64,000 nt of DNA from Patescibacteria group bacterium (GCA_042569365.1 JBHPHK010000002.1:10494-74493); one strand, 5' to 3'. Counted from the stretch's first letter, positions 12,516 to 52,243 are shown. Notes: a model not told the origin generated them from the letters alone. Numbers and translations: made by a program.

Positions 12516-12544
12516 TTGGATTGAGGGTCTCTAAATGGTATAAT
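12516..12544 (+). promoter_or_regulatory. Candidate promoter of the T4SS-like operon, with an extended -10
   Basis: TTGGAT (12516-12521), a 17-nt spacer, then TGgTATAAT (12536-12544). This would give a ~200-nt leader before the ATG at 12747. Confidence 0.4.
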
Positions 12545-12746
12545 TTAGCTAACGTAAACGCCTCATGAGATTGGGCAGAGAATGAATTAAGAGGCTTTTG
12601 CATAAGCCGACCTAATAGCCGGAACTAGTTTCGGTTAATGGAGCCGGGAAAACAAAAAAACAAAAACAAAAACCAAAAGGTCGATTCAAATATTTTTCCT
12701 GACCCTTGGTTTTTTATTTTACTTCTCAAGTTTATTTTTCAGACAA

Positions 12747-13754
12747 ATGACTAAAACGGATTTGAAAAAAACTTTCCCCACAACCATTTCCAAAAATATT
12801 TCATCTACAGAATCTTGGAAGATTGTTTTTGTTTTGATCGGAATCGCAGTCGTTAGTGTATCTGCAATTCAAATCATCAGAAAACAAATCGGGAGCATTG
12901 ATCCTGGCTCCATTGCGGCACAGATCAAGCCGGCGGAAGGAATTGAAAGCGTATCCGATCTCGACACTGATGGTGACGGTCTTTTTGACGCTAAAGAAGA
13001 GCATCTCGGAACAAATCCCCATAACAGTGATACAGATAACGATGGCTTCACTGACGGTGAAGAGATTTTCAACGGATACAATCCTTTATCTGCTGCAATA
13101 GATGGCAGCCAACAGAATTCAGTGAAGATTTTCGGCGAACCACGGGTGATGTATGAAAATATGCAGCCAACAATGACGAGCGCATCCGCAACTTCTGAAG
13201 CGCAGGCGGGAGTCGGAGGTTTAGGTGGTGAGGATGAGGTGATATTAGATAGCGGAGCGATCTCAGATATGTTGCGTCAGGTAAATACGCTAACTAATTA
13301 TTCGATGCCTGATATTAGCGGCATCCCAATCAATATCACGCAGACTTCCGGTAAAACACCAGTCGAGAACTATATGTACGACGTATTGGGCATATTTTCA
13401 CGCTGGGCTCCTTTTGATGACGAGGTAGATATTTCGAACTTTATTGCAGAGGTACAGCAGGGTAATTATGCGCGCGTCGGCGGAGTCATTGAAGCAAAAG
13501 AAGAAGGCCTGAAGGAATTAGCCGAGATTGAAGTTCCTGAAGAAATGTACGATCTGCACACTCAAGGACTGAAGCTCTTAATTGGCGGTAGCAATTCCTT
13601 GATTGCTTTACAGGGAGTAGGTGGTGCTGGCGGTGAAGAGGAGACGATGACACTCTTTTCTCAGATCCAGTATCTTGTAGACCAGACACAGTCATTAGTG
13701 ACAAATATTTCAGCAATAAGTCGAAATTACGACTTGCCATTTGTCTTTGAATAA
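12747..13754 (+). CDS. Membrane-anchored secreted protein with bacterial TSP3-type calcium-binding repeats
   Basis: N-terminal TM (IVFVLIGIAVVSVSAI). DLDTDGDGLFDAKEEHLGTNPHNSDTDNDGFTDGEE. First gene of the co-directional operon. Confidence 0.6.
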   Translation: MTKTDLKKTFPTTISKNISSTESWKIVFVLIGIAVVSVSAIQIIRKQIGSIDPGSIAAQIKPAEGIESVSDLDTDGDGLFDAKEEHLGTNPHNSDTDNDGFTDGEEIFNGYNPLSAAIDGSQQNSVKIFGEPRVMYENMQPTMTSASATSEAQAGVGGLGGEDEVILDSGAISDMLRQVNTLTNYSMPDISGIPINITQTSGKTPVENYMYDVLGIFSRWAPFDDEVDISNFIAEVQQGNYARVGGVIEAKEEGLKELAEIEVPEEMYDLHTQGLKLLIGGSNSLIALQGVGGAGGEEETMTLFSQIQYLVDQTQSLVTNISAISRNYDLPFVFE

Positions 13755-13760
13755 AATAAA

Positions 13761-14828
13761 ATGCACAAATTTTCCCACAAAATCATCGCAGCAATAATCG
13801 TAGTTGGCTTAGCAGCTATAATGTTTGCGCCGCTTAGCGTCAATCGCCAGCGCGCAAACGAAACTTCTCCTTTCCTGCAACCAGCTGTTGCTGATGCGAT
13901 GTGGGGCATGGACGCTGGCATTAAGATTGCTTGGGAAACAGCCTGGAGAGATTATATTCGCGTAAAATTGATCGATCTTGGTAAGTTTTTAAAGCTTCAA
14001 GCTACGATCAAGTTGATCCAGAAGGCTCTTGATGAAACTGAGCTCGGAGGAATGGTGCGGAATTATCGAAGTTTTATTTTCGACGATCTTGCTGATAAAG
14101 CTTTAGATACAATTGATGTTTATTTCGACGACTATCTGCCGGACACTGTAAGTCCCAATGTGAAACGCACAGCAAAAGCAATCGTTAATAACGAGATCCG
14201 GAGTGTAGACGGCATGATTAACACTTTAGGTACGCAGAGCGTTACATCAAACAAACAAGTAAGCACTTCTCAATCCTCAACATCATCGACCGCCCTACTA
14301 AATAATTCCGAGCAAAATTTTTCTCAGAAAACTGTGGCGTGGGTGAAGACATTTTTCAAAGCTCAGTTCGTAGGAACTAAAGCATTATCGCCAAATAACC
14401 CATTGATCGCTTTTGCGTATAATCCGGTACCAACTCAGTGGAAGAATAGTTTCTCTAATTTCAACCAGTTTATAGATAGCGTTGTTCAGTGTAATGGAAG
14501 CGAAACATGTAACGATTCGTTGGCTGCATTGAAGGCAGTTGATAAAGGTATGAAGGAATATAATGCTAGTCAATTATCAGAGACTATACGTACCTTGGTC
14601 TTGAGTGGATACAATACAGAACGAGATAAGGATGGTAATGAAACGCAATGGCCGGGCTTAGCAAAAGCTATGCTCGAGGGTAATGTTCAGCAATTCGCAA
14701 CTATCATTTCAAACTCAGAAGACTACACACCTTCACCAGTCACAACGATGATCGGTGCTTTCATAATCAACTACGTTTTCAATAGTCATGATAATTGGGA
14801 CTCTCTTAATCAACAACGTTTTCAATAA
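13761..14828 (+). CDS. Hypothetical membrane-anchored extracellular protein
   Basis: N-terminal TM (IIAAIIVVGLAAIMFAPL) and a Ser/Thr-rich segment. Starts 7 nt after the previous gene. Confidence 0.5.
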   Translation: MHKFSHKIIAAIIVVGLAAIMFAPLSVNRQRANETSPFLQPAVADAMWGMDAGIKIAWETAWRDYIRVKLIDLGKFLKLQATIKLIQKALDETELGGMVRNYRSFIFDDLADKALDTIDVYFDDYLPDTVSPNVKRTAKAIVNNEIRSVDGMINTLGTQSVTSNKQVSTSQSSTSSTALLNNSEQNFSQKTVAWVKTFFKAQFVGTKALSPNNPLIAFAYNPVPTQWKNSFSNFNQFIDSVVQCNGSETCNDSLAALKAVDKGMKEYNASQLSETIRTLVLSGYNTERDKDGNETQWPGLAKAMLEGNVQQFATIISNSEDYTPSPVTTMIGAFIINYVFNSHDNWDSLNQQRFQ

Positions 14829-14860
14829 TTACGTAAACTAGATCTTTTTAAAAATAAGAT

Positions 14861-15403
14861 TTGCTTATGGCAGATACACCAAAAAGTTCATCCAAGAGAA
14901 TTGATGGAGTATCAAGAACCCCAGCTTCGCTTATTCCACGGAAAAGAAAAGTCATAACCCCGGCAGCGGGTTTAGCTGAACAGCCAATTCCTGAAAATAT
15001 TGAAGAGGAAGAAGAGCAGGATTCAATGGATTTTCCTGGTGGCGCTTTTCCATCCCAAGAACGAGCTGAAGAAAAAGCAGATGAAGAAGAGCCGAAGTCT
15101 ACTGAAGATATTGAGCAGGAACGCGCCCGAAATCTTGCGAAAGAAATGAAAAAAGATAGAGCCAAAGCAATGAAGCAGGCAAAAACTCAGGCTAAGGCGG
15201 CGGGTAAGAAGGCGGCAAAGGCGGCGGGTAAGAAGGTGGCAAAAAAAGTCGCGAAGCAGGCAGTGATGAAAGCAGTACAGGCGGTCGCCGCAGCTATTGC
15301 TCCAGAAGCACTGGCAATCATTGGAATAATTGTAGTAGTCATTATTGTTATCATATTAATTTTCGTTTATGGTTGCGATTTACTTCCTTGGATATGTAGT
15401 TAA
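14861..15403 (+). CDS. Tail-anchored, highly charged protein with an acidic block and a histone-H1-like AKKAAK repeat
   Basis: An EEEEEQD block, then AKAAGKKAAKAAGKKVAKKVAKQ (encoded by a 24-nt tandem DNA repeat at 15194-15241), then a C-terminal TM IIGIIVVVIIVIILIFVYG. Confidence 0.5.
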   Translation: MLMADTPKSSSKRIDGVSRTPASLIPRKRKVITPAAGLAEQPIPENIEEEEEQDSMDFPGGAFPSQERAEEKADEEEPKSTEDIEQERARNLAKEMKKDRAKAMKQAKTQAKAAGKKAAKAAGKKVAKKVAKQAVMKAVQAVAAAIAPEALAIIGIIVVVIIVIILIFVYGCDLLPWICS

Positions 15404-15417
15404 ACAATAAAAAATTC

Positions 15418-17217
15418 GTGAAAAAAATAAACACTCTAACATTTAAAAATATAAAAGAAAAAATTCGTAAGAACGAAGTTTTGCTTACGATCGGATTGAT
15501 ACTTGCGGTTGTTGCAATTGTTATCTTTGTGGTGCCATCGGGGGCCTATGCTGCTGGATTTGCAGAGTCTTTAGGTCTCTGGGTATTCCGCATTATTGCA
15601 TTTATGCTCCAGCTCTATGTAGCGCTTCTAGCGATTCTGATCGCCTTTATGTCTGTTATTTTTGACTGGGTAGCGGGATTTGGCGTCTTTAGTCAGGGAA
15701 CGATTAACGAAGGATTGCTGCGCGGCTGGACGCTGTTGGTGAACGTCGCAAACCTGGTCTTCATTTTAATATTGCTGTTTATCGGTATCGCAACAATATT
15801 CCGCGTCGAACAATTTTCAATTCGTCGCTTGTTTGTGCGCGTTATCGTGGCTGTTTTGCTAATAAATTTCAGCTTCTTCTTCACAAAGATTATCACTAAT
15901 GGCGCGGATACGATTCAAAATATTTTCACCAATGGCGCAGTTGTTTTTCCTGAGTGTAGAGAGGCGGGTGTTCCGATCAGCTGTACGATAGGAAACCTGG
16001 TCGGTATCGGAGATTTGAACTGGGAATCGTCTGTAGGAGGACAAATGGAAATTTTTGATACTCTCATGGCGACAGATAGTACCGACGCAGCACTTGATGT
16101 GGCTATTAAGTCTGCCTTTATGATGGTATTCTTTTCTATCTTCTTGTTTGCTATCGCTATAGTTACCATTCTACTCTTGGTGCGTATGGTGGTCTTATGG
16201 ATCCTGGCTACCATTTCGCCATTTGCCTATGTTGCTATGATTTTGCCGAGTACTCGACCGTACTCTAGCCAATGGTGGAATGCGTTATTCCGGTGGGCTC
16301 TGCTTGGTCCGCTGACTTTGATTTTGATAAACGTGGGGATTTTGGTTATGACGCCAATGCAAGTTGTCGTTGATAATATGCCTGGCGGCAATATAAATGT
16401 TGGTCTCTCACAGGTTGTATTAAATGGAGTGCAGGGGCTAGGACTTTTGATTGTGGCCTCAATCTTTATGATAGGTTCGTTGATGGTGGCGCGTCAGATG
16501 GGCGGTTCCATCGCGGGCGCAATCGTAAACAATGCCAATAAAGGAGCAAAGAATCTTGGAAAATGGGCCGGAGGAAAGGCTTCGGGCGCAGTTCTCGGCA
16601 GGAAGGACTCCAAGACAGGCAAGCGCACTGGCGGCTTGATTCGTCGCGCGCCTGGATTGAAGCAGGCTTCTCAAGCTCTTGAAGGACGCGCCAAGGCAAG
16701 ACAGCAAGCCGGCTTGTCACGCGAAAAAGATTACCAAAAAGGAGTTACAGCTAAGACGGGTAAGTATCGCAAGAAAGCAATTTTGGGCGGCAAACACTTT
16801 GATGAAACAGCAGATCCTGAATATAAAAAACGCATCAGTGAGGGAATTAAAGAAAATAAGGATCCAGGCAATTATGTAAGCGCAGAACACCAGTACGCAA
16901 TAATGGACCAGGCTATTAAAGATGGAGATAAAGAAAAAGCAATGATTGCCCATGGATCAATTGGTGCCAATAAAGATATGACTACCAGAAATGATGTTCG
17001 GGGAAATGATTTTAGAGCTGCTACAGATAGGATGCAGGCGGCAGGTTTTATAGATGAAAAACAAGCAGTTGGACATAAGAACGTTGCGCGCAAAGATTCT
17101 CAGAAACGCATTGAAAAGATGCGTGAAAAGAAGGGAAAAGAGGGTAAGAAGAAGCCAGGTAAGACTTATGTGGATGAGTTTGGTGTTAAACGAGATGAAG
17201 AAGGCAATGCAGTTTAA
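15418..17217 (+). CDS. VirB6/TrbL-like polytopic membrane protein of the T4SS
   Basis: ~8 TM helices in the first ~380 aa, then a ~220-aa Lys-rich hydrophilic tail. Its position next to VirB3/VirB4 homologues is typical for VirB6. Confidence 0.5.
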   Translation: MKKINTLTFKNIKEKIRKNEVLLTIGLILAVVAIVIFVVPSGAYAAGFAESLGLWVFRIIAFMLQLYVALLAILIAFMSVIFDWVAGFGVFSQGTINEGLLRGWTLLVNVANLVFILILLFIGIATIFRVEQFSIRRLFVRVIVAVLLINFSFFFTKIITNGADTIQNIFTNGAVVFPECREAGVPISCTIGNLVGIGDLNWESSVGGQMEIFDTLMATDSTDAALDVAIKSAFMMVFFSIFLFAIAIVTILLLVRMVVLWILATISPFAYVAMILPSTRPYSSQWWNALFRWALLGPLTLILINVGILVMTPMQVVVDNMPGGNINVGLSQVVLNGVQGLGLLIVASIFMIGSLMVARQMGGSIAGAIVNNANKGAKNLGKWAGGKASGAVLGRKDSKTGKRTGGLIRRAPGLKQASQALEGRAKARQQAGLSREKDYQKGVTAKTGKYRKKAILGGKHFDETADPEYKKRISEGIKENKDPGNYVSAEHQYAIMDQAIKDGDKEKAMIAHGSIGANKDMTTRNDVRGNDFRAATDRMQAAGFIDEKQAVGHKNVARKDSQKRIEKMREKKGKEGKKKPGKTYVDEFGVKRDEEGNAV

Positions 17218-17246
17218 GAATCAAAAATATTAAGTTAGATTAATTT

Positions 17247-18659
17247 ATGCCAGAAATAACAGAACAAGATAAAGAGTTTGTTAAGTCGCTTACGCTGGAA
17301 CGCGCTAAAGACCCCGGCACTTTAGATTTATTGAAAAATCGGGCTATGTTTTTTTGGGAGGAAGATTCTCTAAGTGCCCGAATATTCGCCAGTCTCTTAG
17401 AAGATAAGTTTAATAACCAAGATATGCTTGACTTGCGTCAAGACGCAGTTTTATATCAGAAATATCAGGATCTTATCCTTGAAATGCGAGCAAAAGTTAT
17501 TGGTATTTTGAAACTTGAAGAGCAACAAGAGATTTTGCGCAATAATTTTCTGTCAGCTTATCAAAGTAATAAGAATATTTATGAAGATATAATTGAAAGT
17601 TTTGATTATTATGATGAAGACTTTGCCTTAGTAGAAGCAGAAAAAATTACAAGTGCTTTGAATAATAATCAAGAAACAATCGGAACAGAAAATATTGTAA
17701 TAGCAGGTGATACAAAGCCAGTAAGCCCGCAAATCAAATTCTGGATCAAGGATTTCAATAAATTTGCTGGAGGCATGCAAGTATCCACCGAAAAAATATC
17801 TGAATACTTCAGGCAAAACGATAATGTTCGCAAGCTTGACGAGGGAGAGAAGGAAATACTATCCACTATTATTAAAATAGTTAATAGCATGAAGCCTCCT
17901 CAGATAATAACGGGAGATTTGGCCATAGCTGGTGAGTCTCCAGAGAGAGCGGCTGAATTACAGAAGCTTATTAGTAAGAAGGCCGTTGCTCAATCTGAGC
18001 AAGCTCAGGTTTTAGCTTCTGCTGCGCCAGAGGATGTATTGGAGCCAACGGATGAGGAGATACAAGGACGGCCGCAAGCTACGGGACCAGCAGTAAATCC
18101 GTTAGCGGGACAGCCGAGTGTGGCTATACCTAAACCACCGGCACCTGCTCCGACAGCTACTTTGGCACCTGCGGGCCAAACTTTAGCAGCTCCTATTCCA
18201 AGCGAGCTGACTAAGCCTAAAAAAGGATTCTTTGGTCGTCGAAAAAAACAAAATCACGGAGGTTTGCAGATCCAAGATAGTCCTGCGATACAAAGCGCTG
18301 GTCGTAAGGTTGTGTCACCTCAGCCGACAGTTGCTCAACCTGTTACCGCTCAGCCGACACTAGAAAATAGCCTGCAAACAACTTCTGAGAATGCGATCAA
18401 GGCGTACCCTCAAGGCGGAGTGGAATATATCAATCAATTAAACTCGTCCGTTCAGGCTCGTATACAAGCAGATGCTGCGGCAAAAAATAATTTGGCCAAC
18501 AACTGGAAGCAAAGTCCACTTTATCAAAAATATCTTCAGGTAGGACAGGCAAGTATGCAATCTGGTCGCCCAATTCAAGAGGTCTTGCAGGAAAGTGGTA
18601 GTCAATTAACTCTTGAAGAATTTGAAAAAATTACTGCACTTAGTAAGGCGCTTAGCTAA
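17247..18659 (+). CDS. Hypothetical protein with a Pro/Ala-rich linker, T4SS-operon associated
   Basis: No TM segment. Low-complexity stretch PKPPAPAPTATLAPAGQTLAAPIPS. Unknown globular N- and C-terminal parts. Confidence 0.45.
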   Translation: MPEITEQDKEFVKSLTLERAKDPGTLDLLKNRAMFFWEEDSLSARIFASLLEDKFNNQDMLDLRQDAVLYQKYQDLILEMRAKVIGILKLEEQQEILRNNFLSAYQSNKNIYEDIIESFDYYDEDFALVEAEKITSALNNNQETIGTENIVIAGDTKPVSPQIKFWIKDFNKFAGGMQVSTEKISEYFRQNDNVRKLDEGEKEILSTIIKIVNSMKPPQIITGDLAIAGESPERAAELQKLISKKAVAQSEQAQVLASAAPEDVLEPTDEEIQGRPQATGPAVNPLAGQPSVAIPKPPAPAPTATLAPAGQTLAAPIPSELTKPKKGFFGRRKKQNHGGLQIQDSPAIQSAGRKVVSPQPTVAQPVTAQPTLENSLQTTSENAIKAYPQGGVEYINQLNSSVQARIQADAAAKNNLANNWKQSPLYQKYLQVGQASMQSGRPIQEVLQESGSQLTLEEFEKITALSKALS

Positions 18660-18664
18660 TTAAT

Positions 18665-19129
18665 ATGCAATACGAAGTTCCACAATTTATCGAAGTTGAA
18701 GATAAAATTATCGGGCCTTTTACTATTCGCCAGTTCTTGACGATGGTCGTAGGTGCAGTGGCTTTGGCAATACTTTATTTTATGCTTCCGATGATCGCGT
18801 TTATTATCATGGGCATCCCGGTCGTGGTATTTGTGGGAGCATTGGGTTTCTTAAAAATCAATGGACGTCCTTTCTATTTTTTCTTAGCACATTTAACAGG
18901 ATATATTTACCATCCGCGGTTGAGGGTGTGGCGCAGAGACCCAACTCTTCCAGCAGTTAAAGCGAAACAGTCTGACAAGGAAACATTAGAGGCACAAGAA
19001 CGTAAAACTAAGAAACTTCCACGGACAGGCATTGAGCGTTTATCATATATTCTCGATCACGCATCTACGGAAAGCTCAGTATATACAGAGGTGGCTGAAG
19101 AAAAAATCCGCCGCGGTGAAGTTGAATAA
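18665..19129 (+). CDS. VirB3/PrgI-family small membrane protein of the T4SS
   Basis: YEVPQFIEVEDKIIGPFTIRQFL followed by two TM helices. Lies immediately upstream of VirB4, as in Gram-positive conjugation loci. Confidence 0.5.
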   Translation: MQYEVPQFIEVEDKIIGPFTIRQFLTMVVGAVALAILYFMLPMIAFIIMGIPVVVFVGALGFLKINGRPFYFFLAHLTGYIYHPRLRVWRRDPTLPAVKAKQSDKETLEAQERKTKKLPRTGIERLSYILDHASTESSVYTEVAEEKIRRGEVE

Positions 19130-19141
19130 TAATTATTTTTT

Positions 19142-19867
19142 ATGGCAAAGAAAAACACAACACCATTAGTACAGACGATGCAGAGTTCAGGTTTAGCAAA
19201 TAGACCAGGCCAAAAGCAGAGTACTCAGATGTATCTGGATGTCCAAGAGATCCGTGAAGGTACGGTTGTCTTAAAGGATGGCGCATTAAGATCTGTTCTG
19301 TTGGTATCCAGTATGAACTTTGCTCTGAAGTCTTATGAAGAGCAGGAAGCTATAATTCTTGGCTATCAGGGTTTCTTGAACTCTTTGGATTTCCCGATTC
19401 AGATAGTTATGCAATCCCGTGTCTTAGACATTACTGAATACATCGCGAAGCTAGCAGAGCTTGAAAAACAACAATCCAACGAGCTGTTGCGCATCCAAAC
19501 CGCTTCCTACGGAGAATATATTGGTGAGCTTGTGAAGATCTCCAATATCATGAATAAGAACTTTTATATAGTGGTTTCGTTTTCTCCAGTTGGCGCCAAG
19601 AAGGATTCATTTTTTGGTCGTCTCGGTAAGATTATGAATCCAACGCGCGTCATTAAGCAGGAGGCGCAAAAATTTGCCGAATATAAAAGCCAGTTAGAGC
19701 AACGAGTAATGCAAGTGCAGGGAGGACTAGGAGCAGTTGGACTGAAATCGTTAGCCTTAGGAACCCAGGAATTAATCGAGCTGCTTTATCAAAGTTATAA
19801 CACCGAAAATGTTGGGCAAAAGAGCCTGCCAGATATCGGTGAATTAGATTTAGATCAGACAAGCTAA
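19142..19867 (+). CDS. VirB4/TraC-family N-terminal domain, encoded as a separate ORF
   Basis: LDVQEIREGTVVLKDGALRSVLLVSSMNFALKSYEEQEAIILGYQGFLNSLDFPIQI resembles the CagE/TrbE/VirB N-terminal region. Stops 5 nt before the VirB4 ATPase ORF, which is in a different frame. Confidence 0.5.
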   Translation: MAKKNTTPLVQTMQSSGLANRPGQKQSTQMYLDVQEIREGTVVLKDGALRSVLLVSSMNFALKSYEEQEAIILGYQGFLNSLDFPIQIVMQSRVLDITEYIAKLAELEKQQSNELLRIQTASYGEYIGELVKISNIMNKNFYIVVSFSPVGAKKDSFFGRLGKIMNPTRVIKQEAQKFAEYKSQLEQRVMQVQGGLGAVGLKSLALGTQELIELLYQSYNTENVGQKSLPDIGELDLDQTS

Positions 19868-19872
19868 AATAT

Positions 19873-21759: not shown

Positions 21760-22258
21760 CTACAAAATTGCGCTCAATATCTTAATAATAGTCGTCATTG
21801 TGGCGGGTGTTTTTTGGATCGGTAGTTATTGGATGCAAATGCCGACCGCTTCACTTATGAGCGGCAAGGTTGCTGAAGAAGAAACGATTGAAATGGTCAA
21901 AACTAAAGCACAACAAATAGTCGAGCTTTATTATACATATTCAGCAGGCGATAGTCCGATGTTGCTGCAGAGTCTCCAGACAAGCGCCACAACAAATGCG
22001 AAAAAACAAATCGCAGAGCTCATTGAAACAAGAAAAGAAACGCAAGGCGGCTTTGTGCAGGTAGCAACAGTAAATGAAACCACTGACGTAAACATTCGGG
22101 AGCGTGCCGCAGCCCTCGATTACACTTTGAAGATTCAACATTATCGTCTCGGTGCAGAAGTCCAGGAGCAAGAAATTTCTGCAACCATTCGTCTAGTTAA
22201 TGAGGATGGTGTTTGGCTTCTTGCCGCTCTTTCCCCCAGTGAAATAACATGGCCTTAG
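21725..22258 (+). CDS. Small bitopic protein: N-terminal TM plus a ~140-aa extracytoplasmic domain; possibly a VirB8-like component
   Basis: Start re-set to MPNENLPKRK... at 21725 (the track ORF starts at 21644). TM IALNILIIVVIVAGVFWIG. Overlaps the VirB4 end by 35 nt. The VirB8 assignment rests only on architecture and position. Confidence 0.35.
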   Translation: MPNENLPKRKASYKIALNILIIVVIVAGVFWIGSYWMQMPTASLMSGKVAEEETIEMVKTKAQQIVELYYTYSAGDSPMLLQSLQTSATTNAKKQIAELIETRKETQGGFVQVATVNETTDVNIRERAAALDYTLKIQHYRLGAEVQEQEISATIRLVNEDGVWLLAALSPSEITWP

Positions 22259-24273
22259 AGTCGCTCAAAAATAAATATTGGATTTTTACAATATTGTTGT
22301 TGGTCTTTATGTTTTGTTTTTTTGTGACTTTGGTGGTAATGCCTGAGCCAAGCTTTGGGTCTACTACAGACCAGGAAAACGATGAAATCAATGACACATT
22401 GAGCTGTAATGGAGCAACGGAAGATAGTCTTGGAGCCGATGCGGATGTCAGTGACTACAATGAGCCGGTTGATGTGACGATAGATGAGGGAAGCGATCTG
22501 ATTGAGTACGATTTTGACGCAGATCAGATCTATGACTCGTCTCAAGCTTTCGTCGGAACGCCACAAGCAGAGATCTTTACACCATCTTATTCATTTCCGG
22601 TGGGCGCAGAGGTATTTCTAAATTTAAACCCGCTCTTTTTCAACTTAACGACGACCAATTTCAGCGATCTTTATGTTGCCTGGTTTCGGGATGACTTTCC
22701 GATGCAGGGCGTGGTAGCGGGTGCAGACTTTTCTACTCTGGAGGGTTTAACGGTAACAGGTATTGGTAACCCGGTTCCAGTCTGTAATTCCGTGAGTCGT
22801 TTAGCTGCGCTTGATACAGACGCAGATGGTCTCGATGATGAATGGGAGCGTCGCTACTTTGTTGATCGCAATCTAGCAGAGTCTATCGAAGCGGTTCTGC
22901 CTGATGATGACTTTGACAGCGACGGAGCTTTGCCGATCAATGCGGTGAATACTGCCGGTGAATTCATAACTGTAGTTCCAGCAGTCTTAGGACAAGATTC
23001 TCTGGATGGAAAATATACCAACTTAGAAGAATACGTTTGGGGCACTGATCCAACCAGTCCAGACACAGACGGCGACGGCCACAGAGACGGGGACGACATC
23101 CTGGGAACGGGTCAAATCCATTTCCTTTATATGAACGAAAAGGAATTCGGTGAGGAGGCTACGGTTGTCCGTGCAACAGCAGTCGGTACAGCTATGCAGC
23201 GCACCTCCAATGACGAGCGTTTGATCAAGATCGACAGTACGACCATAGACATCCTTACTACCAATGAAGAAAACCTGGACGGACACATTATCTTAGAAGA
23301 TAAATATATCCTGCCAAATGAATCGGGCGTGGCTAGATTCGAGCCAATCGGAACCGGGGCTCAGGCGAAGACTCTGGAAATCAACTGGTATGTCGATGGA
23401 GACTTGCAGACGGCGCAATCCGGTTTTTCCCAAACAGTCTTGGACTTTAAAATACCAAGCGATAAAACGACAGGAGATTATCTTGTCATAGCGGCGGCGG
23501 CCACTAATCCAACAACCGGTCAAATATCAAGAATAAGCGAAGTGATCCGTATCGGAGAGCCGATGGTGATGAGTTATCTGGCAGATCAAGCTTTTGCAGA
23601 CGAAATTCTGCCAGTTACGGTTAACTTTTTAAATCCAAATGCTCGCCAAGATTACGTTTATAAATGGTTCATTGATAACACATGGCAGGAAGATATTTCT
23701 GGCCCAGGTCGCAATACACTGCCGCTGGAAATAACCAAGCAAATCGAAGGCGATACTATGGATGTGAAAGTGCAGGTCTTCGAGATCAATTCAAGTGAAA
23801 TGGTCATAGAATTGGAAGAAGAAATTCCTGTTGTAGCGCCAAGTGTGGATTTAATACTCGCACCAGAGAGGCCGCAAGCCGGCAGTACAGTCACAGTTAT
23901 AGCAGACCTGACTCGTTTTCCTGGAAATTCTGTAGAATTTGATTGGACTATTGATCGGTTCGAAGTCGAACAAAAACAAAGCAGTCAAATTAGTTTTACA
24001 GCAGGCGAAATAGGAGCTGAGCATATTGTAGAGCTTGGCGTGCAAAACGATAGAGAACACAGTGATTATGCGGAGGCCATTGCGTTTATCGAGATTTACC
24101 CGTCATCGATCAGTAGTTCAAGTTTTTTAAACTCATCGTTCGGGAAAATACTAGCGCGCCTAAATGTTTCCTCACCTATTCCAATATTAACTTTCTGTGG
24201 CATTGTCCTCGTGATTTTCATAAGTCTTCTGGGAATCAAGAAAGCAACTAATCGTCCTTATAATGACGCGTAA
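22249..24273 (+). CDS. Double-anchored (N- and C-terminal TM) surface protein with TSP3 repeats; paralog 1 of 3
   Basis: N-terminal TM. ENDE...SCNGATED. DTDADGLDDEWERRYFVDRNLAESIEAVLPDDDFDSDG. NLEEYVWGTDPTSPDTDGDGHRDGDDILGTGQ. C-terminal TM ILTFCGIVLVIFISLLG. Confidence 0.7.
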   Translation: MALESLKNKYWIFTILLLVFMFCFFVTLVVMPEPSFGSTTDQENDEINDTLSCNGATEDSLGADADVSDYNEPVDVTIDEGSDLIEYDFDADQIYDSSQAFVGTPQAEIFTPSYSFPVGAEVFLNLNPLFFNLTTTNFSDLYVAWFRDDFPMQGVVAGADFSTLEGLTVTGIGNPVPVCNSVSRLAALDTDADGLDDEWERRYFVDRNLAESIEAVLPDDDFDSDGALPINAVNTAGEFITVVPAVLGQDSLDGKYTNLEEYVWGTDPTSPDTDGDGHRDGDDILGTGQIHFLYMNEKEFGEEATVVRATAVGTAMQRTSNDERLIKIDSTTIDILTTNEENLDGHIILEDKYILPNESGVARFEPIGTGAQAKTLEINWYVDGDLQTAQSGFSQTVLDFKIPSDKTTGDYLVIAAAATNPTTGQISRISEVIRIGEPMVMSYLADQAFADEILPVTVNFLNPNARQDYVYKWFIDNTWQEDISGPGRNTLPLEITKQIEGDTMDVKVQVFEINSSEMVIELEEEIPVVAPSVDLILAPERPQAGSTVTVIADLTRFPGNSVEFDWTIDRFEVEQKQSSQISFTAGEIGAEHIVELGVQNDREHSDYAEAIAFIEIYPSSISSSSFLNSSFGKILARLNVSSPIPILTFCGIVLVIFISLLGIKKATNRPYNDA

Positions 24274-26380
24274 ATCAGTAATCATAAGTATATTTTTAAT
24301 AGCTCTTATCGGAGGGTCGTTTTGGCTGTGGTCGCATTACTCTTATGTAAATGGCGAAACGTGGACTGATCACGAAAATGACGAGGCGGATGTACATGCG
24401 GGTGGTCCACACGACATATTTGCGTGTAATGGCGTTCAGGAAGACATGCAGGCACCCACAGGATCATATAACAATTCCTTTCCGCCAGTACAAGTGGATG
24501 CAGATATTGACTGGGATGATCAGGATATAGATATCAACGAAGACTGGATGTCCGATACTCAATTTAATCAAATGATCAGCGAGGGTAGCTTAAGTATGCA
24601 ATCTCCGCAATTGGACATTGCCTTGAGTCCGGTAGCTCCAGAAGAAGGACAAGAAATTGAAGCGACTGCTGCAGTGCAAATGTTGCGTTCGACAGATATG
24701 GAAAGCATGGATACTTATTTTGCCTGGTCGTTGGACGGAGTTTCAATGATGGGTGTTGTGGCCGGGGGCGATCCTTTAGATCTCCTGCCTTCATCTCTGC
24801 GCGACTCCTGCACGACAGTGACGCGCATCCCAGATACAGATGTTGACGGTGACGGCATGGATGATGCGTGGGAAGAGCGCTATTTTGTGCGCCGCAATCT
24901 GGCGGATTCCATCGCAGATGTCTTACCGGAGGACGACGGAGACCTTGATGGCTTTGCGCCTATTGATCTGGTCAATCTTCAGGGTCAACCATTGATCTTA
25001 ACACCGCTACTGAGCACAGCTGCCACTGTGCCGACAGGCACTTTAGATATTCAAGACTCAGCTTACACCAATCTCGAAGAATATATTTGGGGAACTGATC
25101 CAACAGACCCTGATACTGATGATGATGGATACTTGGACGGAGAAGATATTGCCGGACGCGGTCAACTTTCTCTTAAATTCACACCAACCAAAGGCGTTCA
25201 CGATTTCCCGCCGCATCAATTGCGCGCAACAGTCGGAGGAATTTCCTTCCAAACATTGACAGACGACACTCACGACTCTGAAGAATTAGTTAAGTTAGAT
25301 AGTGATGTCAAAGACGTTTTTATCTCAACTGGAGAGAAGCTGGAAGGAATCCTAAATATGCAGCCGGATATAGCGGCGCCTGGAGAGACGGTTACATTTA
25401 CATTCCAACCTCTTCAAACGGATGCTGATCCCGGAGCATTAGCTTACGAATGGCGGTTTGATGGTGAGCCAAAAACTAATCCTCTGCCATCAGCTGAGAT
25501 ATTTGAGTATCTGATTCGTCCTACTGAGCATGAGCCACGCTCCGCAATTGATGTTGATCTGGAGGTGGTCAATCCATCAACGGGGCAATTAACAACTATT
25601 CAAAGTTCATATTTTGTAGCTGAGCCTATCGATCTCGTGCCGATGGATGCTGACATTGTCCCAGGTTCTAGTACAACAGTTAACACATATCTAATATCCG
25701 GCGCAGATCCGAGCGATTTTCTTTTCAAGTGGTATGTCGATAACTCTTTAGATGAAAGAGCTTCGGGGGTTGGTAATAATTCTTTGACATTTGATGTAGA
25801 AGAGGATTTTGGCGGCTATCATCGGGTAAAGCTTGAACTCTTCGACATTAGTAATAGCCGTTTGGTTGGTAGGCAACAAATTGATCTTCCTATCGCCGGT
25901 CCATCTATTGAGCTAACTTTTATTCCTGAAATAGCACAGCCAGGAGAGACGGTGACAGTCGTGGCTGAGGCTGTTAATTTTCCACGAAATCTAGACACCG
26001 ATCAGGACGATATTAATGATGCTTCTCAGATAGAATTTGTATTTGAGCTTGATGGGGCGGAGGTCGGATCAGACATCAACGCAGCAGGAGCAGGGACGAT
26101 GTCGTTTACAGCAGGTAATGATAATGAAATTTATAAGATAAATATTTCGGCAAAAACTACTGGTGAAGAATTTCAATCGGCAGAGGCGATAGGCCAATAT
26201 CAAGTTGGCGCGGGCCCCATTTCATACGAAACCAGTCTTTTTAATCGTTTTACAGCATCGCTTATCCAGAATCCACGAACCTATATTATTTCTGTGATTT
26301 CAATTGGAATTATCACGTTAATATTCTTTCTTGTCTTGCGCAGTATGATGCCGCGTAAAGCAAATAGAAACCAAACTTAA
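24263..26380 (+). CDS. Double-anchored TSP3-repeat surface protein; paralog 2 of 3
   Basis: IFACNGVQED. DTDVDGDGMDDAWEERYFVRRNLADSIADVLPEDDGDLDG. NLEEYIWGTDPTDPDTDDDGYLDGEDIAGRGQ. C-terminal TM. Confidence 0.7.
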   Translation: MTRKSVIISIFLIALIGGSFWLWSHYSYVNGETWTDHENDEADVHAGGPHDIFACNGVQEDMQAPTGSYNNSFPPVQVDADIDWDDQDIDINEDWMSDTQFNQMISEGSLSMQSPQLDIALSPVAPEEGQEIEATAAVQMLRSTDMESMDTYFAWSLDGVSMMGVVAGGDPLDLLPSSLRDSCTTVTRIPDTDVDGDGMDDAWEERYFVRRNLADSIADVLPEDDGDLDGFAPIDLVNLQGQPLILTPLLSTAATVPTGTLDIQDSAYTNLEEYIWGTDPTDPDTDDDGYLDGEDIAGRGQLSLKFTPTKGVHDFPPHQLRATVGGISFQTLTDDTHDSEELVKLDSDVKDVFISTGEKLEGILNMQPDIAAPGETVTFTFQPLQTDADPGALAYEWRFDGEPKTNPLPSAEIFEYLIRPTEHEPRSAIDVDLEVVNPSTGQLTTIQSSYFVAEPIDLVPMDADIVPGSSTTVNTYLISGADPSDFLFKWYVDNSLDERASGVGNNSLTFDVEEDFGGYHRVKLELFDISNSRLVGRQQIDLPIAGPSIELTFIPEIAQPGETVTVVAEAVNFPRNLDTDQDDINDASQIEFVFELDGAEVGSDINAAGAGTMSFTAGNDNEIYKINISAKTTGEEFQSAEAIGQYQVGAGPISYETSLFNRFTASLIQNPRTYIISVISIGIITLIFFLVLRSMMPRKANRNQT

Positions 26381-26386
26381 ATCCAT

Positions 26387-28384
26387 ATGTCGATCAACTG
26401 GAAAAAAAGAATAGCAATCCTTCTCGTAATTTTTCTGGCAGCAGGCAGCGTCAGTTTTTGGAATATGGATTTTACAAACGCGATTTCTGATCCAGAAAAC
26501 GACGAAGACGCCGACATATTTGCGTGTAACGGTGTCAGGGAAGATGCTTTTGGAAAAGCAACTCAGTCGTCTCTAGACGAGCAATGGCCGCCAGCTCATG
26601 TAAGTGGCAAAAACGTTGTCTTTGACTATGATCCAGATGAAATAGCGGGTCGGGCGATGGCAGAAGTAGACGCACCGCGCGCCAGCATTATGACCTCGAG
26701 TCGCATGGGCCAAAACAGCGTCGATGAAAATATTGCCCTATCAGCCTTACCGCTAGTATTTGATACAACTGAAAATGACCAGGGCGATATAAGTTTTTCC
26801 TGGTCTATCGACGGGACGTCAATTATGGGCGTAGTGGCTGGCGCTAGTTCATTAGATTTGCCAGAGAGCGGGGGAGAGCATTGTAGTACAGTTACGCGTA
26901 CGCCAGAAACAGATACAGATGGCGATGGCATGGATGATGCATGGGAACAGCGCTACTTCGTAGATACTGCCGCCTTCGGCTCTATTGCAGAAGTCTTGCC
27001 GGGTGATGATTATGACCAGGACGGCATTATCGCAGATCAGTTTTTAAGTTCAGACTCAGGTCAAGCTCTGATAAACAGTCCGACAACAAGTGTTGGACCT
27101 CCTGGCGACGGCATATTTACAAACTTGGAGGAATATATTTGGGGTACGGATCCAATTGATGCGGACACAGACGATGACGGCTTTATAGACGGAGAAGATA
27201 TTCTTGGTCTTGGTCAGTCGAGCATTGAGCTTGATCCAACAATATTTATTTCAGAAAGCACTAACAGGTTTAACGTTCGTCTGACAATACTAGGCTACTG
27301 GGCGGCGCGTGACAATGAAAACAATCGCATTGCAAAGCTAGATAGCACCGAAGAAGTAGTGATCGTGAGTGAAGAAGAAGACATGGAAGTTAGCTTGCGT
27401 TTAGAAAATCGAACAACACCAAGGCCTGGTGACATTATTAAGGTACAGGCTCAGGTTAGAGACACGCGATCCTTGTCTGACGTCTTAAATTATCGGTGGT
27501 ATGTAAATGGGGTTGAACAAGTTGATGCTAGCGGTGCAGGAGCTCACATTTTGAACTATCCGCTTTCGACAGCGGTCGCGCCAGAGACGAAAGTCGAGAT
27601 CAGAGTAGAAGCCTACAACGAGACCACTGGCGATATTGCAGAAGATACAATATATTTCCAGGTAGGACAGCTTGTAGCATTTGAATACGATCCCGTTAAA
27701 GTCTTTCAGGGAAATGAAATAACTGTCGGAACAATTTTCCCAGACACAATAGAGAAGGACGATTATGTTTTCCGTTGGACGATTGATGGCATCCAGCAAA
27801 AAACCAAATCTGGTTTAGGCCAAGATGAGATTGAGTTTGTGATAGATAAGCCAGAATTTGAGACACATACAGTTGAGCTTGATATCATTCGCCGCTATGA
27901 TAGTACGGTCTTGGCGACAATTAGCGAGGAAATTGGAATAATTTCTCCAAAAGTAACGCTAGTCATTACTCCTGAAGTTATTGCGCCGGGCAGTACAGTC
28001 ACTCTGCAAACTCTGACCCAAGCCTTTGGCTCGACAAATTTAAAATATGAATGGCAAATAGATGGTCAGGATATAGAAGACGCATCATCAAGTATATTGA
28101 GCTTTACGGCTGGAGAGTCTGGAGCGCAGCATATGGCTGAGGTGGTTGTAACAGATTTACGCAGCGATCATTCTATTTCTGCTACTGCGCTAGCGGACAT
28201 ATATGTCAGCAGCACATCTTCCAACGAGGGGAATAGCATCATTAGTCTAGCAGCCAGTCTGCTTGACAGTGCGCCAAAAGTTACGCTTGCCATTACAGGC
28301 TTTATACTGCTTATGATAGCGATCTTTGCTATACTAAGGAGTGTGAGTGCTGGATCTAAACAAACTTCTGTTAAACAATCATAA
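26387..28384 (+). CDS. Double-anchored TSP3-repeat surface protein; paralog 3 of 3
   Basis: IFACNGVRED. ETDTDGDGMDDAWEQRYFVD. NLEEYIWGTDPIDADTDDDGFIDGEDILGLGQ. C-terminal TM ITGFILLMIAIFAIL. Confidence 0.7.
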   Translation: MSINWKKRIAILLVIFLAAGSVSFWNMDFTNAISDPENDEDADIFACNGVREDAFGKATQSSLDEQWPPAHVSGKNVVFDYDPDEIAGRAMAEVDAPRASIMTSSRMGQNSVDENIALSALPLVFDTTENDQGDISFSWSIDGTSIMGVVAGASSLDLPESGGEHCSTVTRTPETDTDGDGMDDAWEQRYFVDTAAFGSIAEVLPGDDYDQDGIIADQFLSSDSGQALINSPTTSVGPPGDGIFTNLEEYIWGTDPIDADTDDDGFIDGEDILGLGQSSIELDPTIFISESTNRFNVRLTILGYWAARDNENNRIAKLDSTEEVVIVSEEEDMEVSLRLENRTTPRPGDIIKVQAQVRDTRSLSDVLNYRWYVNGVEQVDASGAGAHILNYPLSTAVAPETKVEIRVEAYNETTGDIAEDTIYFQVGQLVAFEYDPVKVFQGNEITVGTIFPDTIEKDDYVFRWTIDGIQQKTKSGLGQDEIEFVIDKPEFETHTVELDIIRRYDSTVLATISEEIGIISPKVTLVITPEVIAPGSTVTLQTLTQAFGSTNLKYEWQIDGQDIEDASSSILSFTAGESGAQHMAEVVVTDLRSDHSISATALADIYVSSTSSNEGNSIISLAASLLDSAPKVTLAITGFILLMIAIFAILRSVSAGSKQTSVKQS

Positions 28385-28388
28385 CCAC

Positions 28389-29525
28389 ATGTCAGTTATA
28401 TCCAAAAAAGTATTAATAATTTATGCAATTGCATTTGTCGGCATAATTTGCTTCGCAACAATTAGTTGGGCTCTTAGTACTCAAGATTTTATTACAGTTT
28501 CAGAAAAGAGGATTGGTGAAAGTGATAGGGGAGTGACATGGGAGTTGACAATCAGTAATGGCAAAGAGAAAGCCGACGATTGTACGACGCCAAGTAACGG
28601 TCTACCTCCTGATCTGTATAAAGTAGTTCCGATCAGTTCAGGAGGATCAATACAGCCCCCTGATAAAAGTGGCTTAATTGTTATTGAGGGGGATGATGAA
28701 ATTGTATCCGGTTGGTCTCTGAGTCGTAATGCAATTCAGGCTCATAATGATGATACAGTGAAGGTTTTAGTTCTAGGTGAGTCGGCTAAGTTTTACGTAC
28801 AGATCTATTGTTGGAAAGAAGGAATGGCTACTGTAGATGAATACTTTAACGTTATGAACGATGCTTATTTCTTTGATGGCAATGAAGAAATCAATGACAG
28901 TGTTACTGATAAAAATTCAATGGAAATCGAACTCCTGGGCGTTAATATAAATGACCAAGATGGTGATCAATTAAGGGATGAGGATGAAAAGAGTGATCGT
29001 TGTCCGCACATCTTAATTCCGGACAGTGATGGAGATGGATCAAAAGACGGAAATGACAGTAGTGGTCCTTGTATTAACACCAATTACACTAATAGTCCCA
29101 ATATAATCTACGGCAGTAAAGATGAGTGTACGACGGCAATAGGCGATCGTGCTAATGACGATCCGCCATCTGTCTGCTATGCGCTAAGTGGCATTGATGG
29201 CAAGACTTATTACCGTGAAGGAAAGCCTTCAGGTGTGAATAGTTCTATTGATCCTGAGAGCTTGGATGTAAGCGGATGGGATCCAGACTTAACACCTTTT
29301 AGGGCATTAATTGGCACATATTATAATATTGCAATTTCTTTTGGTGCTTTGGCGGCAATTATAATGATTATTATAGGCGGTTATCAATATGCTACTGCGG
29401 CGGGTAATCAAGCGCGCATATCCCAGGCAAAAACAACTATAAACTATGCATTACTAGGACTTGCAGTTGTGATCTTGGCGGCAGTCTTCTTAAATCTTGT
29501 TAATCCCGCTATCATCGGCGGATAA
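28389..29525 (+). CDS. Membrane protein with an Asp/Cys-rich extracellular domain and a C-terminal VirB2/T4SS-pilin-like two-helix hairpin
   Basis: N-terminal TM. Extracellular DQDGDQLRDEDEKSDRCPHILIPDSDGDGSKDGNDSSGPC. C-terminal hairpin FGALAAIIMIIIGGYQYATAAGNQARISQAKTTINYALLGLAVVILAAVF. Start chosen at the ATG at 28389, after the upstream stop. Confidence 0.45.
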   Translation: MSVISKKVLIIYAIAFVGIICFATISWALSTQDFITVSEKRIGESDRGVTWELTISNGKEKADDCTTPSNGLPPDLYKVVPISSGGSIQPPDKSGLIVIEGDDEIVSGWSLSRNAIQAHNDDTVKVLVLGESAKFYVQIYCWKEGMATVDEYFNVMNDAYFFDGNEEINDSVTDKNSMEIELLGVNINDQDGDQLRDEDEKSDRCPHILIPDSDGDGSKDGNDSSGPCINTNYTNSPNIIYGSKDECTTAIGDRANDDPPSVCYALSGIDGKTYYREGKPSGVNSSIDPESLDVSGWDPDLTPFRALIGTYYNIAISFGALAAIIMIIIGGYQYATAAGNQARISQAKTTINYALLGLAVVILAAVFLNLVNPAIIGG

Positions 29526-29536
29526 ATTATTAAAAT

Positions 29537-30721
29537 ATGCGTTCTCGAATTCTCATTATTATTAGCGTCATCCTTTTGGTCTTAATTTTGGCCGGAGTTG
29601 GTCTGTACCTACTTTTTTCTAACGGTGACGTAACTACACCTGCGGAAAATGAAGGCAATGGTCAGGTAGGTCTGACAGAATATGGAACACAAGCCTTGGC
29701 AGCCCTTGAGGATCCGAAACAACTACCACCCCTGACTAAATTAAATGATCTGCCGAGTAATTATCTGAGCTATGACAATAAAGAGAAGCAGTTGATTTAC
29801 TACAACAATTCAGCTGAGCAAATATTTGCTTCAAATTTGCTGGGATATGGCCAATCTGCGCGTTCTGACGAATTAAGCAATTTGACAGACATGGTTTGGT
29901 CGGCAGATAGAAATAAAGGCTTGCTCTTTTTCCAGGCAAGTGAGGGTAGTCCATTTCGCGCCTATATTTTTGATAACGAAACTCTGGAAACCAAAGAAAT
30001 TAAAGGCTATTACTCGAGTCTTACTTGGGCGAATGACTCGCGTTACCTAATCGGTTATCGTATTGGAGCTGCGGACGATGCAGCTACAGGCATTGTTAAA
30101 ATCAATAGAGAAACATTAGCGGAAGATGTTTTGTACGAAAGCGACCTGGAAGGCGTTCAGGTTCTATCTTACGGCGAAGATATTTTATATTATCTCAAGA
30201 CCGAAAGTCTGCGTCGCAGTAGCTTGTACCTCTTTGATACGTCAGCCAAAAAATCAACAGAACTTATATCCGGCTATTATAATTTTGAACCATTACTTTC
30301 GCCAAATGAAAACAAATTAATCTTTACTGGAAATACAGATGCTAATGATAAGCCTACGCTTCAGTATAAAGATTTAAGTAACGCAAGCAGTAAAGTATTT
30401 AGTCTTAATGTGGAAACATTTGCTAGCAAGTGTGCCTGGAATAGTGCTAGTACGGCAATCTACTGCGCTGTGCCGACAAGTTTGCCGATTAGTCAGACTC
30501 TCTATCAGGATTATCTTGATGCTAAGTTGAACAACTTAGATGCGATCTGGAGAATCAGCAGTGAATCTTTCGATGTAGAACAAATTATACCCGCACAAAA
30601 AATGTATGAAATTGATGCGCGTTATATGGTCGTTGGGAAAGATGACGCAACATTATATTTTATTAATCGTAGGGATGCCTATCACATTTGGGCTGTCAAT
30701 CTACATCTCTTAGAAGTTTAA
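29537..30721 (+). CDS. Membrane-anchored protein with a probable TolB-like beta-propeller domain; last gene of the operon
   Basis: N-terminal TM ILIIISVILLVLILAGVGLYLL. Repeated YxxSLTWANDSRYLI-type PD40-like blocks. Confidence 0.45.
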   Translation: MRSRILIIISVILLVLILAGVGLYLLFSNGDVTTPAENEGNGQVGLTEYGTQALAALEDPKQLPPLTKLNDLPSNYLSYDNKEKQLIYYNNSAEQIFASNLLGYGQSARSDELSNLTDMVWSADRNKGLLFFQASEGSPFRAYIFDNETLETKEIKGYYSSLTWANDSRYLIGYRIGAADDAATGIVKINRETLAEDVLYESDLEGVQVLSYGEDILYYLKTESLRRSSLYLFDTSAKKSTELISGYYNFEPLLSPNENKLIFTGNTDANDKPTLQYKDLSNASSKVFSLNVETFASKCAWNSASTAIYCAVPTSLPISQTLYQDYLDAKLNNLDAIWRISSESFDVEQIIPAQKMYEIDARYMVVGKDDATLYFINRRDAYHIWAVNLHLLEV

Positions 30722-30745: not shown

Positions 30746-30777
30746 AAAAAGAGCTGGTGTATTAAACTAGCTTTTTT
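30746..30777. terminator. Bidirectional terminator between the operon end and recG
   Basis: AAAAAGAGCT-N13-AGCTTTTTT hairpin between convergent genes. Confidence 0.45.
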
Positions 30778-30826
30778 AAAAGGATGCATTGAAAAAGAAA
30801 TGAGCAAATGAAAAAACTCCCTTGTG

Positions 30827-38491: not shown

Positions 38492-38581
38492 TGGCGGAGG
38501 GGGTGGGATTCGAACCCACGAGACCCTTGCGGGCCTACTGGTTTTCAAGACCAGCGCCTTCGACCGCTCGGCCACCCCTCC
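38492..38581 (-). tRNA. tRNA-Ser, anticodon UGA
   Basis: 90 nt: GGAGGGG-TG-GCC-GAGCGGTCGAA-GGC-G-CTGGT-CTTGAAA-ACCAG-(18-nt variable arm)-GTGGG-TTCGAAT-CCCAC-CCCCTCC-G-CCA. Confidence 0.8.
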
Positions 38582-38620
38582 ATGTTGAAATATCCATCTG
38601 AGTGTACATTATTTTAGCTT

Positions 38621-44733: not shown

Positions 44734-44744
44734 TAGGTTTTACT

Positions 44745-52226: not shown

Positions 52227-52243
52227 GCTAATACATAATTACA

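Follow-up and report, generated by a model that had tools for sequence, protein, structure and literature searches.

The DNA analyzed here is a stretch of 64,000 nucleotides (nt) from a Patescibacteria group bacterium (GCA_042569365.1 JBHPHK010000002.1:10494-74493), which we call the window and in whose positions all coordinates are given. Fourteen consecutive open reading frames (ORFs) on its plus strand, spanning ~18 kb at positions 12747-30721, form a putative operon that appears to encode a type IV secretion system (T4SS) of the kind described for Patescibacteria. The genes, numbered O1 to O14 in 5'->3' order, are separated by 6, 32, 14, 29, 5, 12, 5, -35, -10, -11, 6, 4 and 11 nt, i.e. 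neighbours either overlap (negative values) or are at most 32 nt apart. The NCBI annotation calls the same 14 consecutive genes (ACFL1U_00495 to ACFL1U_00560, proteins MFC1632610-23), in agreement with the tightly packed, co-directional arrangement described in an earlier, sequence-only reading of this DNA. One of the products is named there 'PrgI family protein' (O6), the other 13 'hypothetical protein'. Housekeeping genes border the operon as proposed in that reading: a polyprenyl synthase gene and rsmA/ksgA (11550-12446, plus strand) are located upstream, and recG (30827-32905, minus strand) lies downstream, convergent with O14.

The core of the translocon is represented by O4 and O6-O8. 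The assignment of O8 (19873-21759) as a VirB4 ATPase of the monoderm (MPF_FATA) type is supported by Pfam (P-loop_TraG, 7e-27), by the NCBIfam model of the CD1110-family VirB4 (379 bits, with a curated cutoff of 325), by a family profile that retrieves the Thermoanaerobacter VirB4 structure (PDB: 4AG5; E 3e-62), and by the Walker A (SGAGKS) and Walker B (ILIIDEAW) motifs in its translation, which had already been pointed out. Judged by sequence identity, its closest relatives are found in Patescibacteria, the 80 best genomic matches being 50-64% identical. The preceding gene, O7 (19142-19867), encodes a TrsD-like protein and had been taken for the N-terminal domain of VirB4 in the form of a separate ORF. 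The tiling of two VirB4 models speaks for this interpretation: in the model of the VirB4 from Mycoplasma integrative conjugative elements (ICEs; 894 positions), O7 covers positions 100-233 (E 2.9e-8) and O8 positions 292-890, and in the CD1110-family model O7 covers positions 11-120 and O8 181-728 of 752. O7 also matches the TrsD model (E 4.9e-5); Pfam PF26593 is present in all O7 homologs among the matches listed, and some of them carry the JGI label 'VirB4 component'. According to these models, O7 and O8 are predicted to make up a full-length monoderm VirB4 together. O6 (18665-19129) is a PrgI family protein, the equivalent of VirB3, and exceeds the Pfam PrgI cutoff (7.6e-9, 36.4 bits versus 27), as expected from the sequence-only reading. 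O4 (15418-17217) is a VirB6/TrbL-like polytopic membrane protein with ~7 transmembrane (TM) segments in the TM scan, followed by a basic tail of 230 amino acids (aa) that is predicted to be cytoplasmic. On its own, O4 has no match in Pfam; its previously proposed likeness to VirB6 emerges at the level of the family profile (32 members), whose top PDB match is TrwI, the VirB6 of R388 (E 2e-3, ~250 positions), while Pfam TrbL is matched by 5 of the 32 homologs (best 9e-6).

The last two genes of the operon encode a pilin fusion and a beta-propeller. O13 (28389-29525) begins with a signal or anchor sequence, continues with an ectodomain of ~280 aa that contains one DxDxDG motif, and ends in a VirB2-like helical hairpin at the extreme C-terminus. 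The hairpin, recognized earlier as pilin-like, fits the TM pattern and scores above the cutoff of Pfam T4SS_pilin (PF18895; 7e-7, 29.6 bits versus 26.6) at residues 322-385 of the 392-aa reading; O13 is the single PF18895-type pilin gene in the window. All matches of O13 are confined to this hairpin, and no homologs of the ectodomain were found. In the relatives, the hairpin is mostly located near the N-terminus and followed by a long C-terminal extension, unlike the C-terminal hairpin of O13. A weak match (E 2e-4) links the hairpin to the NCBIfam 'pilin-like conjugal transfer protein' of Mycoplasma ICEs. Because the hairpin as well as O7 and O8 resemble Mycoplasma ICE models, such a hairpin may be native to part of MPF_FATA and not borrowed from diderm systems, a borrowing that was considered possible in a survey from 2025 (PMC12102498).

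O14 (29537-30721) is, on the basis of its family profile, predicted to be a membrane-tethered propeller of the PD40 (TolB) type with an N-terminal anchor. The profile, built from 42 sequences, matches TolB structures with an E-value of 1.4e-17, which agrees with the TolB-like propeller named in the sequence-only reading; Pfam PD40 is found in 12 of the 42 homologs, and PEGA or peptidoglycan-binding domains in a few. An orthologous relationship to the TolB protein of the Tol-Pal system was considered and rejected in view of the N-terminal TM anchor, the T4SS operon context, and the tol/pal genes, which were not found in the window.

Four further genes encode putative surface proteins with calcium-binding motifs. 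O1 (12747-13754), at the head of the operon, is anchored at its N-terminus (TM ~26-44) and comprises two TSP3-type calcium-binding repeats (Pfam TSP3_bac: 5.8e-12, 45.7 bits versus a cutoff of 25) as well as a C-terminal domain of ~200 aa. In the PDB profile search only the calcium-binding repeats were matched, and the C-terminal half obtained no match. O10 (22249-24273), O11 (24263-26380) and O12 (26387-28384) are collinear paralogs with 32-33% identity, as sequence comparison reveals. O10 is classified as a type-I surface protein by TM scan, motifs and its paralogy with O11 and O12; each of the three possesses an N-terminal signal or anchor, two DxDxDG calcium-binding motifs, three PKD/Ig-like repeats of ~90 aa with the pattern W-x-x-D-G...S-G-x-G, and a C-terminal TM anchor with a basic tail. 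Searches of PDB and Pfam with this family returned nothing of note: O11 and O12 have weak PKD/Ig matches only, O10 none, and the Pfam TSP3 family is matched by none of the three. Their DxDxDG module and the one in O1 are, however, homologous (E 1e-9 to 1e-13). Hence, of the earlier description as three TSP3 paralogs, the paralogy stands, and the TSP3 character depends on the motifs and on the module shared with O1, not on the Pfam family.

We compared the ORFs of 80 loci, i.e. the best VirB4 matches with one genome scanned per species, by iterative hidden Markov model searches; the denominators 54 and 50 below refer to loci with enough upstream and downstream DNA, respectively. Nearly all of the loci come from metagenome-assembled genomes (MAGs) labelled Patescibacteria or Candidate Phyla Radiation (CPR), and the taxonomic labels of the closest MAGs conflict (Saccharibacteria, Parcubacteria, Moranbacteria); identity to the related loci is at most 46% for UvrD and 39% for RsmA. 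PrgI is present in 69 of the 80 loci, a TrsD-like gene directly upstream of VirB4 in 71, and a VirB6-like gene in 47/54. O1 occurs in 40/54, always directly after rsmA; in at least 25 loci rsmA immediately precedes the cluster, often with uvrD close. The propeller is found in 47/50 loci and the pilin fusion in 40/50. The recurring order is RsmA-O1-...-VirB6-PrgI-TrsD-VirB4-...-pilin/propeller, and the loci are intact, with regard to the fragmentation or pseudogenes that would have spoken against a functional system. Genes resembling O10-O12 were observed in the ~10 closest loci only, where they encode 900-1200 aa and occupy the same position in one or two copies.

This comparison also bears on the question of whether the surface proteins take part in secretion at all. 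It could be argued that only O4 and O6-O8, perhaps with O13, constitute the secretion system, while O1, O2, O10-O12 and O14 encode envelope proteins or adhesins that have nothing to do with it beyond a common transcription unit; they match no known T4SS component family, the genes of the O10-O12 type are limited to the 10 closest loci, and the annotation tables of the T4SS cluster in Southlakia epibionticum list neither a propeller nor a TSP3 gene. But the propeller, besides its wide occurrence, adjoins the pilin gene in 40/40 of the loci having a pilin, and in some loci both genes have been duplicated together; among adjacent pairs, the pilin comes first in 32 and the order is reversed in 15. 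O1 consistently opens the cluster, and gaps of 4-11 nt or overlaps join the surface-protein genes to those of the core. We therefore regard the passenger explanation as rather improbable.

The remaining members of the operon are confined to this lineage or to its nearest relatives. Neither O2 nor O3 nor O9 has a sequence homolog in the 80 loci, homologs of O5 occur in only the ~9-10 closest ones, and neither protein families nor PDB entries gave an informative match to O2, O3 or O5. O2 (13761-14828) is an N-terminally anchored protein of 355 aa (TM at 8-26); most related loci that have both O1 and VirB6 contain an N-anchored protein of 300-980 aa between them, in the position of O2. O3 (14861-15403), for which NCBI chose a different start codon, is a tail-anchored protein of ~180 aa, composed of an acidic stretch, a Lys/Ala-rich stretch and a C-terminal TM segment at 151-169. 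Its weak matches to Rifin, TolA and a CD1108 mobile-element protein (E 2.5e-3) are of the low-complexity type; they look compositional, and a relationship to these proteins was rejected. The tail anchor of O3 is thus in accord with the sequence-only reading, whose term 'histone-like' describes its composition only. O5 (17247-18659), with 470 aa and a Pro/Ala/Gln-rich linker, is a soluble protein according to its hydropathy. The same reading had assigned a TM segment to every product except VirB4, which does not apply to O5 and O7, with highest 19-residue Kyte-Doolittle means of 0.84 and 1.09, respectively.

O9 (21725-22258), a bitopic ORFan of 177 aa with a single N-terminal TM segment, follows VirB4. 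A search of 5.8 billion proteins and a full HMMER search of 1.84 billion representatives returned only O9 itself, and no match to it was given by profiles built on its positional analogs in the closest loci. The top Foldseek matches of its single-sequence AlphaFold model, which is poor (predicted local distance difference test score 51), are mostly NTF2-like (SgcJ, ketosteroid isomerase, CaMKII hub), all with E of at least 0.2. A VirB8-like role of O9 is possible. In related loci, its place after VirB4 is taken by other small proteins of bitopic or polytopic topology. The closest loci have there a lipoprotein-like protein of ~240 aa, whose signal sequence is followed by a Cys, a linker rich in Thr and Ser, and a C-terminal domain of ~110 aa, and which has no detectable similarity to O9; in ~41 more distant loci, a conserved bitopic protein of ~330 aa is located directly after VirB4.

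To look for genes of conjugation and mobility, the window's ORFs from 200 aa upwards were compared with Pfam. Within this scope, none matches the families of VirD4/type IV coupling protein (T4CP), relaxase, VirB11 or integrase, and the span around the operon that is free of conjugation genes extends 12 kb upstream and 33 kb downstream. The only ATPase of the T2SSE family, which is related to VirB11, is PilB of a separate type IV pilus locus. These results are in line with the absence of VirD4, relaxase, VirB11 and integrase claimed before; the additional claim that no lytic transglycosylase is present does not strictly hold. Three genes for cell-wall hydrolases are located 4-10 kb upstream and outside of the operon, namely a CHAP protein (2578-3501), a LysM+M23 peptidase (3737-5110), and a DUF348+G5+DPBB_1 protein (7689-8663) of the 'lytic transglycolase' type. 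A mobile island was considered and discarded: the GC content of the locus equals that of its flanks (0.432 versus 0.440 in the remainder of the window), the synteny is conserved, and no integrase is present.

For the same region one could envisage the transfer module of a conjugative element, i.e. the remnant of an ICE or plasmid that has its relaxase and coupling protein beyond the ends of the window. Among VirB4 families, those from ICEs of Firmicutes and Mycoplasma are indeed the closest to O8, and the source contig continues for ~23 kb beyond the window. Against this, neither integrase, relaxase, T4CP nor repeat boundaries of a mobile element were found in the 64 kb, the base composition is that of the flanks, and the chromosomal position next to rsmA (often also uvrD) has been kept in many divergent genomes. 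Moreover, a relaxase near virB4 was reported in 15 cases as compared to 2,474 detected virB4 genes (PMC12102498). We consider a conjugative element highly improbable; the non-conjugative, non-mobile system proposed in the sequence-only reading fits both the content of the window and the conserved synteny.

T4SSs of Patescibacteria have been described previously. By transposon sequencing (Tn-seq), Wang et al. (2023) identified SEML1_0006-0019, the T4SS of Southlakia epibionticum, as essential when this bacterium grows on its host (PMC10633639); the system, whose pilin genes are among the essential ones, resembles Gram-positive conjugative systems and has neither a coupling protein nor a relaxase (PMC10633639). 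According to Quinonero-Coronel et al. (2025), most VirB4s of Patescibacteria form a clade that is sister to MPF_FATA, and virB4 has TrsD, PrgI/VirB3, VirB6 and pilins of the PF18895 family in its vicinity; relaxases are infrequent, T4CP homologs are mostly distant from virB4, and VirB8 is seldom detectable (PMC12102498). The same survey reports ksgA near virB4, in the ABY1 class also recG, radA and comF, and detected no adhesins (PMC12102498). A review from 2025 lists the Patescibacteria system as a distinct newcomer (PMC12857230). As to function, both the delivery of effectors and the uptake of nucleotides are raised in a PNAS perspective from 2024, which calls the role of the T4SS 'completely unknown' (PMC11665869), and a 2026 preprint describes tubular structures, possibly T4SS pili, at the parasite-host interface (bioRxiv 10.64898/2026.06.21.733656).

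The locus in the window shares with the surveyed clade (PMC12102498) the MPF_FATA-like VirB4, the TrsD-like gene directly upstream of it, PrgI/VirB3, VirB6, a PF18895 pilin near virB4 with neither relaxase nor T4CP nearby, and the chromosomal site by ksgA/rsmA with recG and comF close. Since the TrsD gene, the pilin by virB4, the missing relaxase and the ksgA/recG/comF neighbours are all contained in the published descriptions, this architecture has a name, contrary to the sequence-only reading, which knew of no match: on the strength of gene content, the locus is assigned to the Patescibacteria-clade, MPF_FATA-related T4SS (PMC10633639, PMC12102498, PMC12857230) and not to a new kind of system. 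It differs from that description in that its pilin domain is fused to a large ectodomain instead of being a small stand-alone pilin and, as far as the searchable text of the survey goes, in the conserved pair of propeller and pilin fusion and in the protein with the TSP3 module. The terms TSP3, PD40/TolB and propeller are not mentioned in the searchable text and supplements of the Patescibacteria T4SS papers, one of which is searchable only in part. What is new is accordingly modest: the propeller/pilin-fusion pair and O1 are conserved components that go unmentioned in this searchable literature, and, likewise a modest addition, the split VirB4 is documented by direct tiling.

The locus and the T4SS cluster of Southlakia (PMC10633639) have in common a size of ~14 genes, a VirB4, a TrsD-like, a PrgI and a VirB6-like protein, VirB2-like pilins, and the lack of coupling protein and relaxase. 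A pair of ComF and tRNA-Ser genes (SEML1_0021/0022) follows directly after the T4SS and pilin array of Southlakia, whereas the same pair lies ~8 kb downstream in the window. Southlakia differs by a lysozyme/CHAP and a DD-peptidase gene inside the cluster, whose cell-wall hydrolases are essential (PMC10633639), while those of the window are located outside the operon; by a divergent array of six small pilins in place of a single pilin fusion; and by two large VirB6-like proteins and the NTF2-like protein SEML1_0012. Compared with Southlakia, the window has in addition the PD40 propeller, O1, O2, O3, O5 and the three O10-O12 paralogs. Essentiality is established for Southlakia only, the window being known from its genes.

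Conjugative T4SSs of the MPF_FATA class, such as pCF10 Prg/Pcf, pGO1 Trs, the conjugative transposons (CTn elements) of Clostridioides difficile, and the Mycoplasma ICEs, resemble the locus in their VirB4 (above the CD1110-family cutoff) and in their PrgI, TrsD-like and VirB6-like proteins; the pilin hairpin is weakly like that of the Mycoplasma ICEs. Unlike these systems, the operon in the window lacks a relaxase and a coupling protein as well as a hydrolase of the VirB1 type and an adhesin of the PrgB type, and it is not situated on a mobile element.

Taken together, the locus probably represents a non-conjugative host-interaction T4SS of the Patescibacteria clade, chromosomal and vertically inherited, which would have been derived from the monoderm MPF_FATA conjugation machinery minus its DNA-processing parts. 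We propose the following mechanism. The split VirB4 (O7/O8) would dock on PrgI and VirB6 in the membrane, and this motor would power the formation of a pilus-like structure or conduit outside the cell, made from the hairpin of O13. In the predicted topology, both ends of the hairpin are outside and the basic loop is inside; the variable ectodomain of O13 is placed outside because both pilin termini are predicted to face outward. The O14 propeller together with O1 and O10-O12 would constitute a wall or surface scaffold and the host-contact part, in place of the adhesins and the parts that span the envelope in other T4SSs. If the Southlakia system is taken as a guide, the machinery would not conjugate but would support an epibiotic or parasitic life by transferring protein or other macromolecules upon contact. 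O2, O3, O9 and the ectodomain of O13 have no detectable homologs, whereas the cytoplasmic and membrane core is conserved, and such a contrast between a conserved core and extracellular parts diverged beyond recognition fits predicted host-facing functions.

A different cargo direction could be accommodated within the host-interaction reading. The system might be an importer that, in the manner of ComB or Ced, takes up host nucleic acids or nucleotide-rich material into a nucleotide-auxotrophic cell, instead of exporting effectors. The lack of coupling protein and relaxase in the window is compatible with import, and the VirB2/3/4/6-type core of Helicobacter pylori ComB works without both; the PNAS perspective, citing H. 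pylori ComB, names the T4SS as a candidate route for nucleotide acquisition (PMC11665869). ComB belongs, however, to a diderm with equivalents of VirB7-10, shares no homology with the locus beyond the common core, and has uptake as its function; equivalents of ComB7-10 were not found here. O8 is weakly similar to the archaeal DNA-import ATPases CedB (E 4e-8) and CedD (3e-5), a similarity that any ATPase of the VirB4/HerA type would yield, and both O3 and the tail of O4 are Lys-rich and predicted to be cytoplasmic. Furthermore, recG is the next gene downstream, and a gene of the ComFC type, with a double zinc ribbon and a phosphoribosyltransferase (38492-39319, minus strand), which adjoins tRNA-Ser(TGA), follows 8 kb downstream, as loci of the ABY1 class are accompanied by comF, recG and radA (PMC12102498). 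Yet this proximity may be neutral synteny, for the ComF-tRNA-Ser pair also follows the T4SS of Southlakia. In that species the competence gene comEC is dispensable and the T4SS is essential; therefore, classical DNA uptake is not the essential role. All in all, we deem an importer unlikely, though a live alternative.

Several observations weigh against a non-conjugative host-interaction system. A coupling protein could be encoded beyond the 64-kb window, either on the further ~23 kb of contig or in the rest of the genome, and T4CP homologs distant from virB4 are common in Patescibacteria (PMC12102498). The assignment of O4 to VirB6 is weak at the level of the single sequence, with a profile E-value of only 2e-3, and a VirB8-like identity of O9 is no more than a possibility. 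An extension of ~280 aa on a VirB2-type pilin may not fit the canonical packing of a pilus. Finally, the source is an uncultivated metagenome-assembled genome and the locus is known from genes alone, co-transcription, pilus formation and the roles of O1, O10-O12 and O14 resting on gene order only. More tentative, and in our view somewhat doubtful, is the further idea that the PD40 propeller, the fusion of pilin and hypervariable ectodomain, O1 and O10-O12 might represent an undescribed extracellular T4SS module in Patescibacteria other than Saccharimonadia, which would replace envelope-spanning and adhesin parts and set the host specificity.

With regard to expression, the element TGGTATAAT (12536-12544, plus strand), found by direct reading of the 300-nt spacer between rsmA and O1, ~200 nt before the start of O1, is a plausible candidate for the extended -10 box of the operon promoter. 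It is missing from the consensus promoter scan because its -35 box is weak. The ~200-nt leader between this candidate box and the start of O1 (12545-12746) contains an A-rich tract at ~12650-12680 and has no match in Rfam. Between the convergent genes O14 and recG, a hairpin at 30747-30778 with a 12-bp stem, a 7-nt loop, and A and T runs on its flanks (RNAfold: -13.5 kcal/mol) is a candidate bidirectional terminator; it is absent from the list of a simple terminator scan. The counts of promoters and terminators in these scans are no higher than in shuffled controls, and the scans are therefore uninformative on internal promoters or terminators in either direction. The 20 nt upstream of each of the 14 starts are A/T-rich and contain no Shine-Dalgarno-like purine-rich motif.

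Elsewhere in the window, the type IV pilus locus mentioned above (50264-60820) comprises PilM, PilN, PilB with MshEN, PilC and a prepilin peptidase. Just upstream of it, three consecutive ORFs of 429, 579 and 1554 aa (41705-49409, plus strand), with weak SdrD_B-like matches or none, probably encode large surface proteins.

The T4SS of Patescibacteria is essential for epibiotic growth in the sole species tested so far, and the locus described here is an added example from an unstudied lineage. In the large subclade to which it belongs, the gene of the PD40 propeller is nearly as conserved as the VirB genes and is always paired with a pilin-domain fusion. Against a motor that retains 50-64% identity, O2, O9 and the ectodomain of O13 have become unrecognizable. 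The propeller, the pilin fusion and the variable extracellular proteins are candidates for the host-contact end of the system and possible targets in cultivable relatives.

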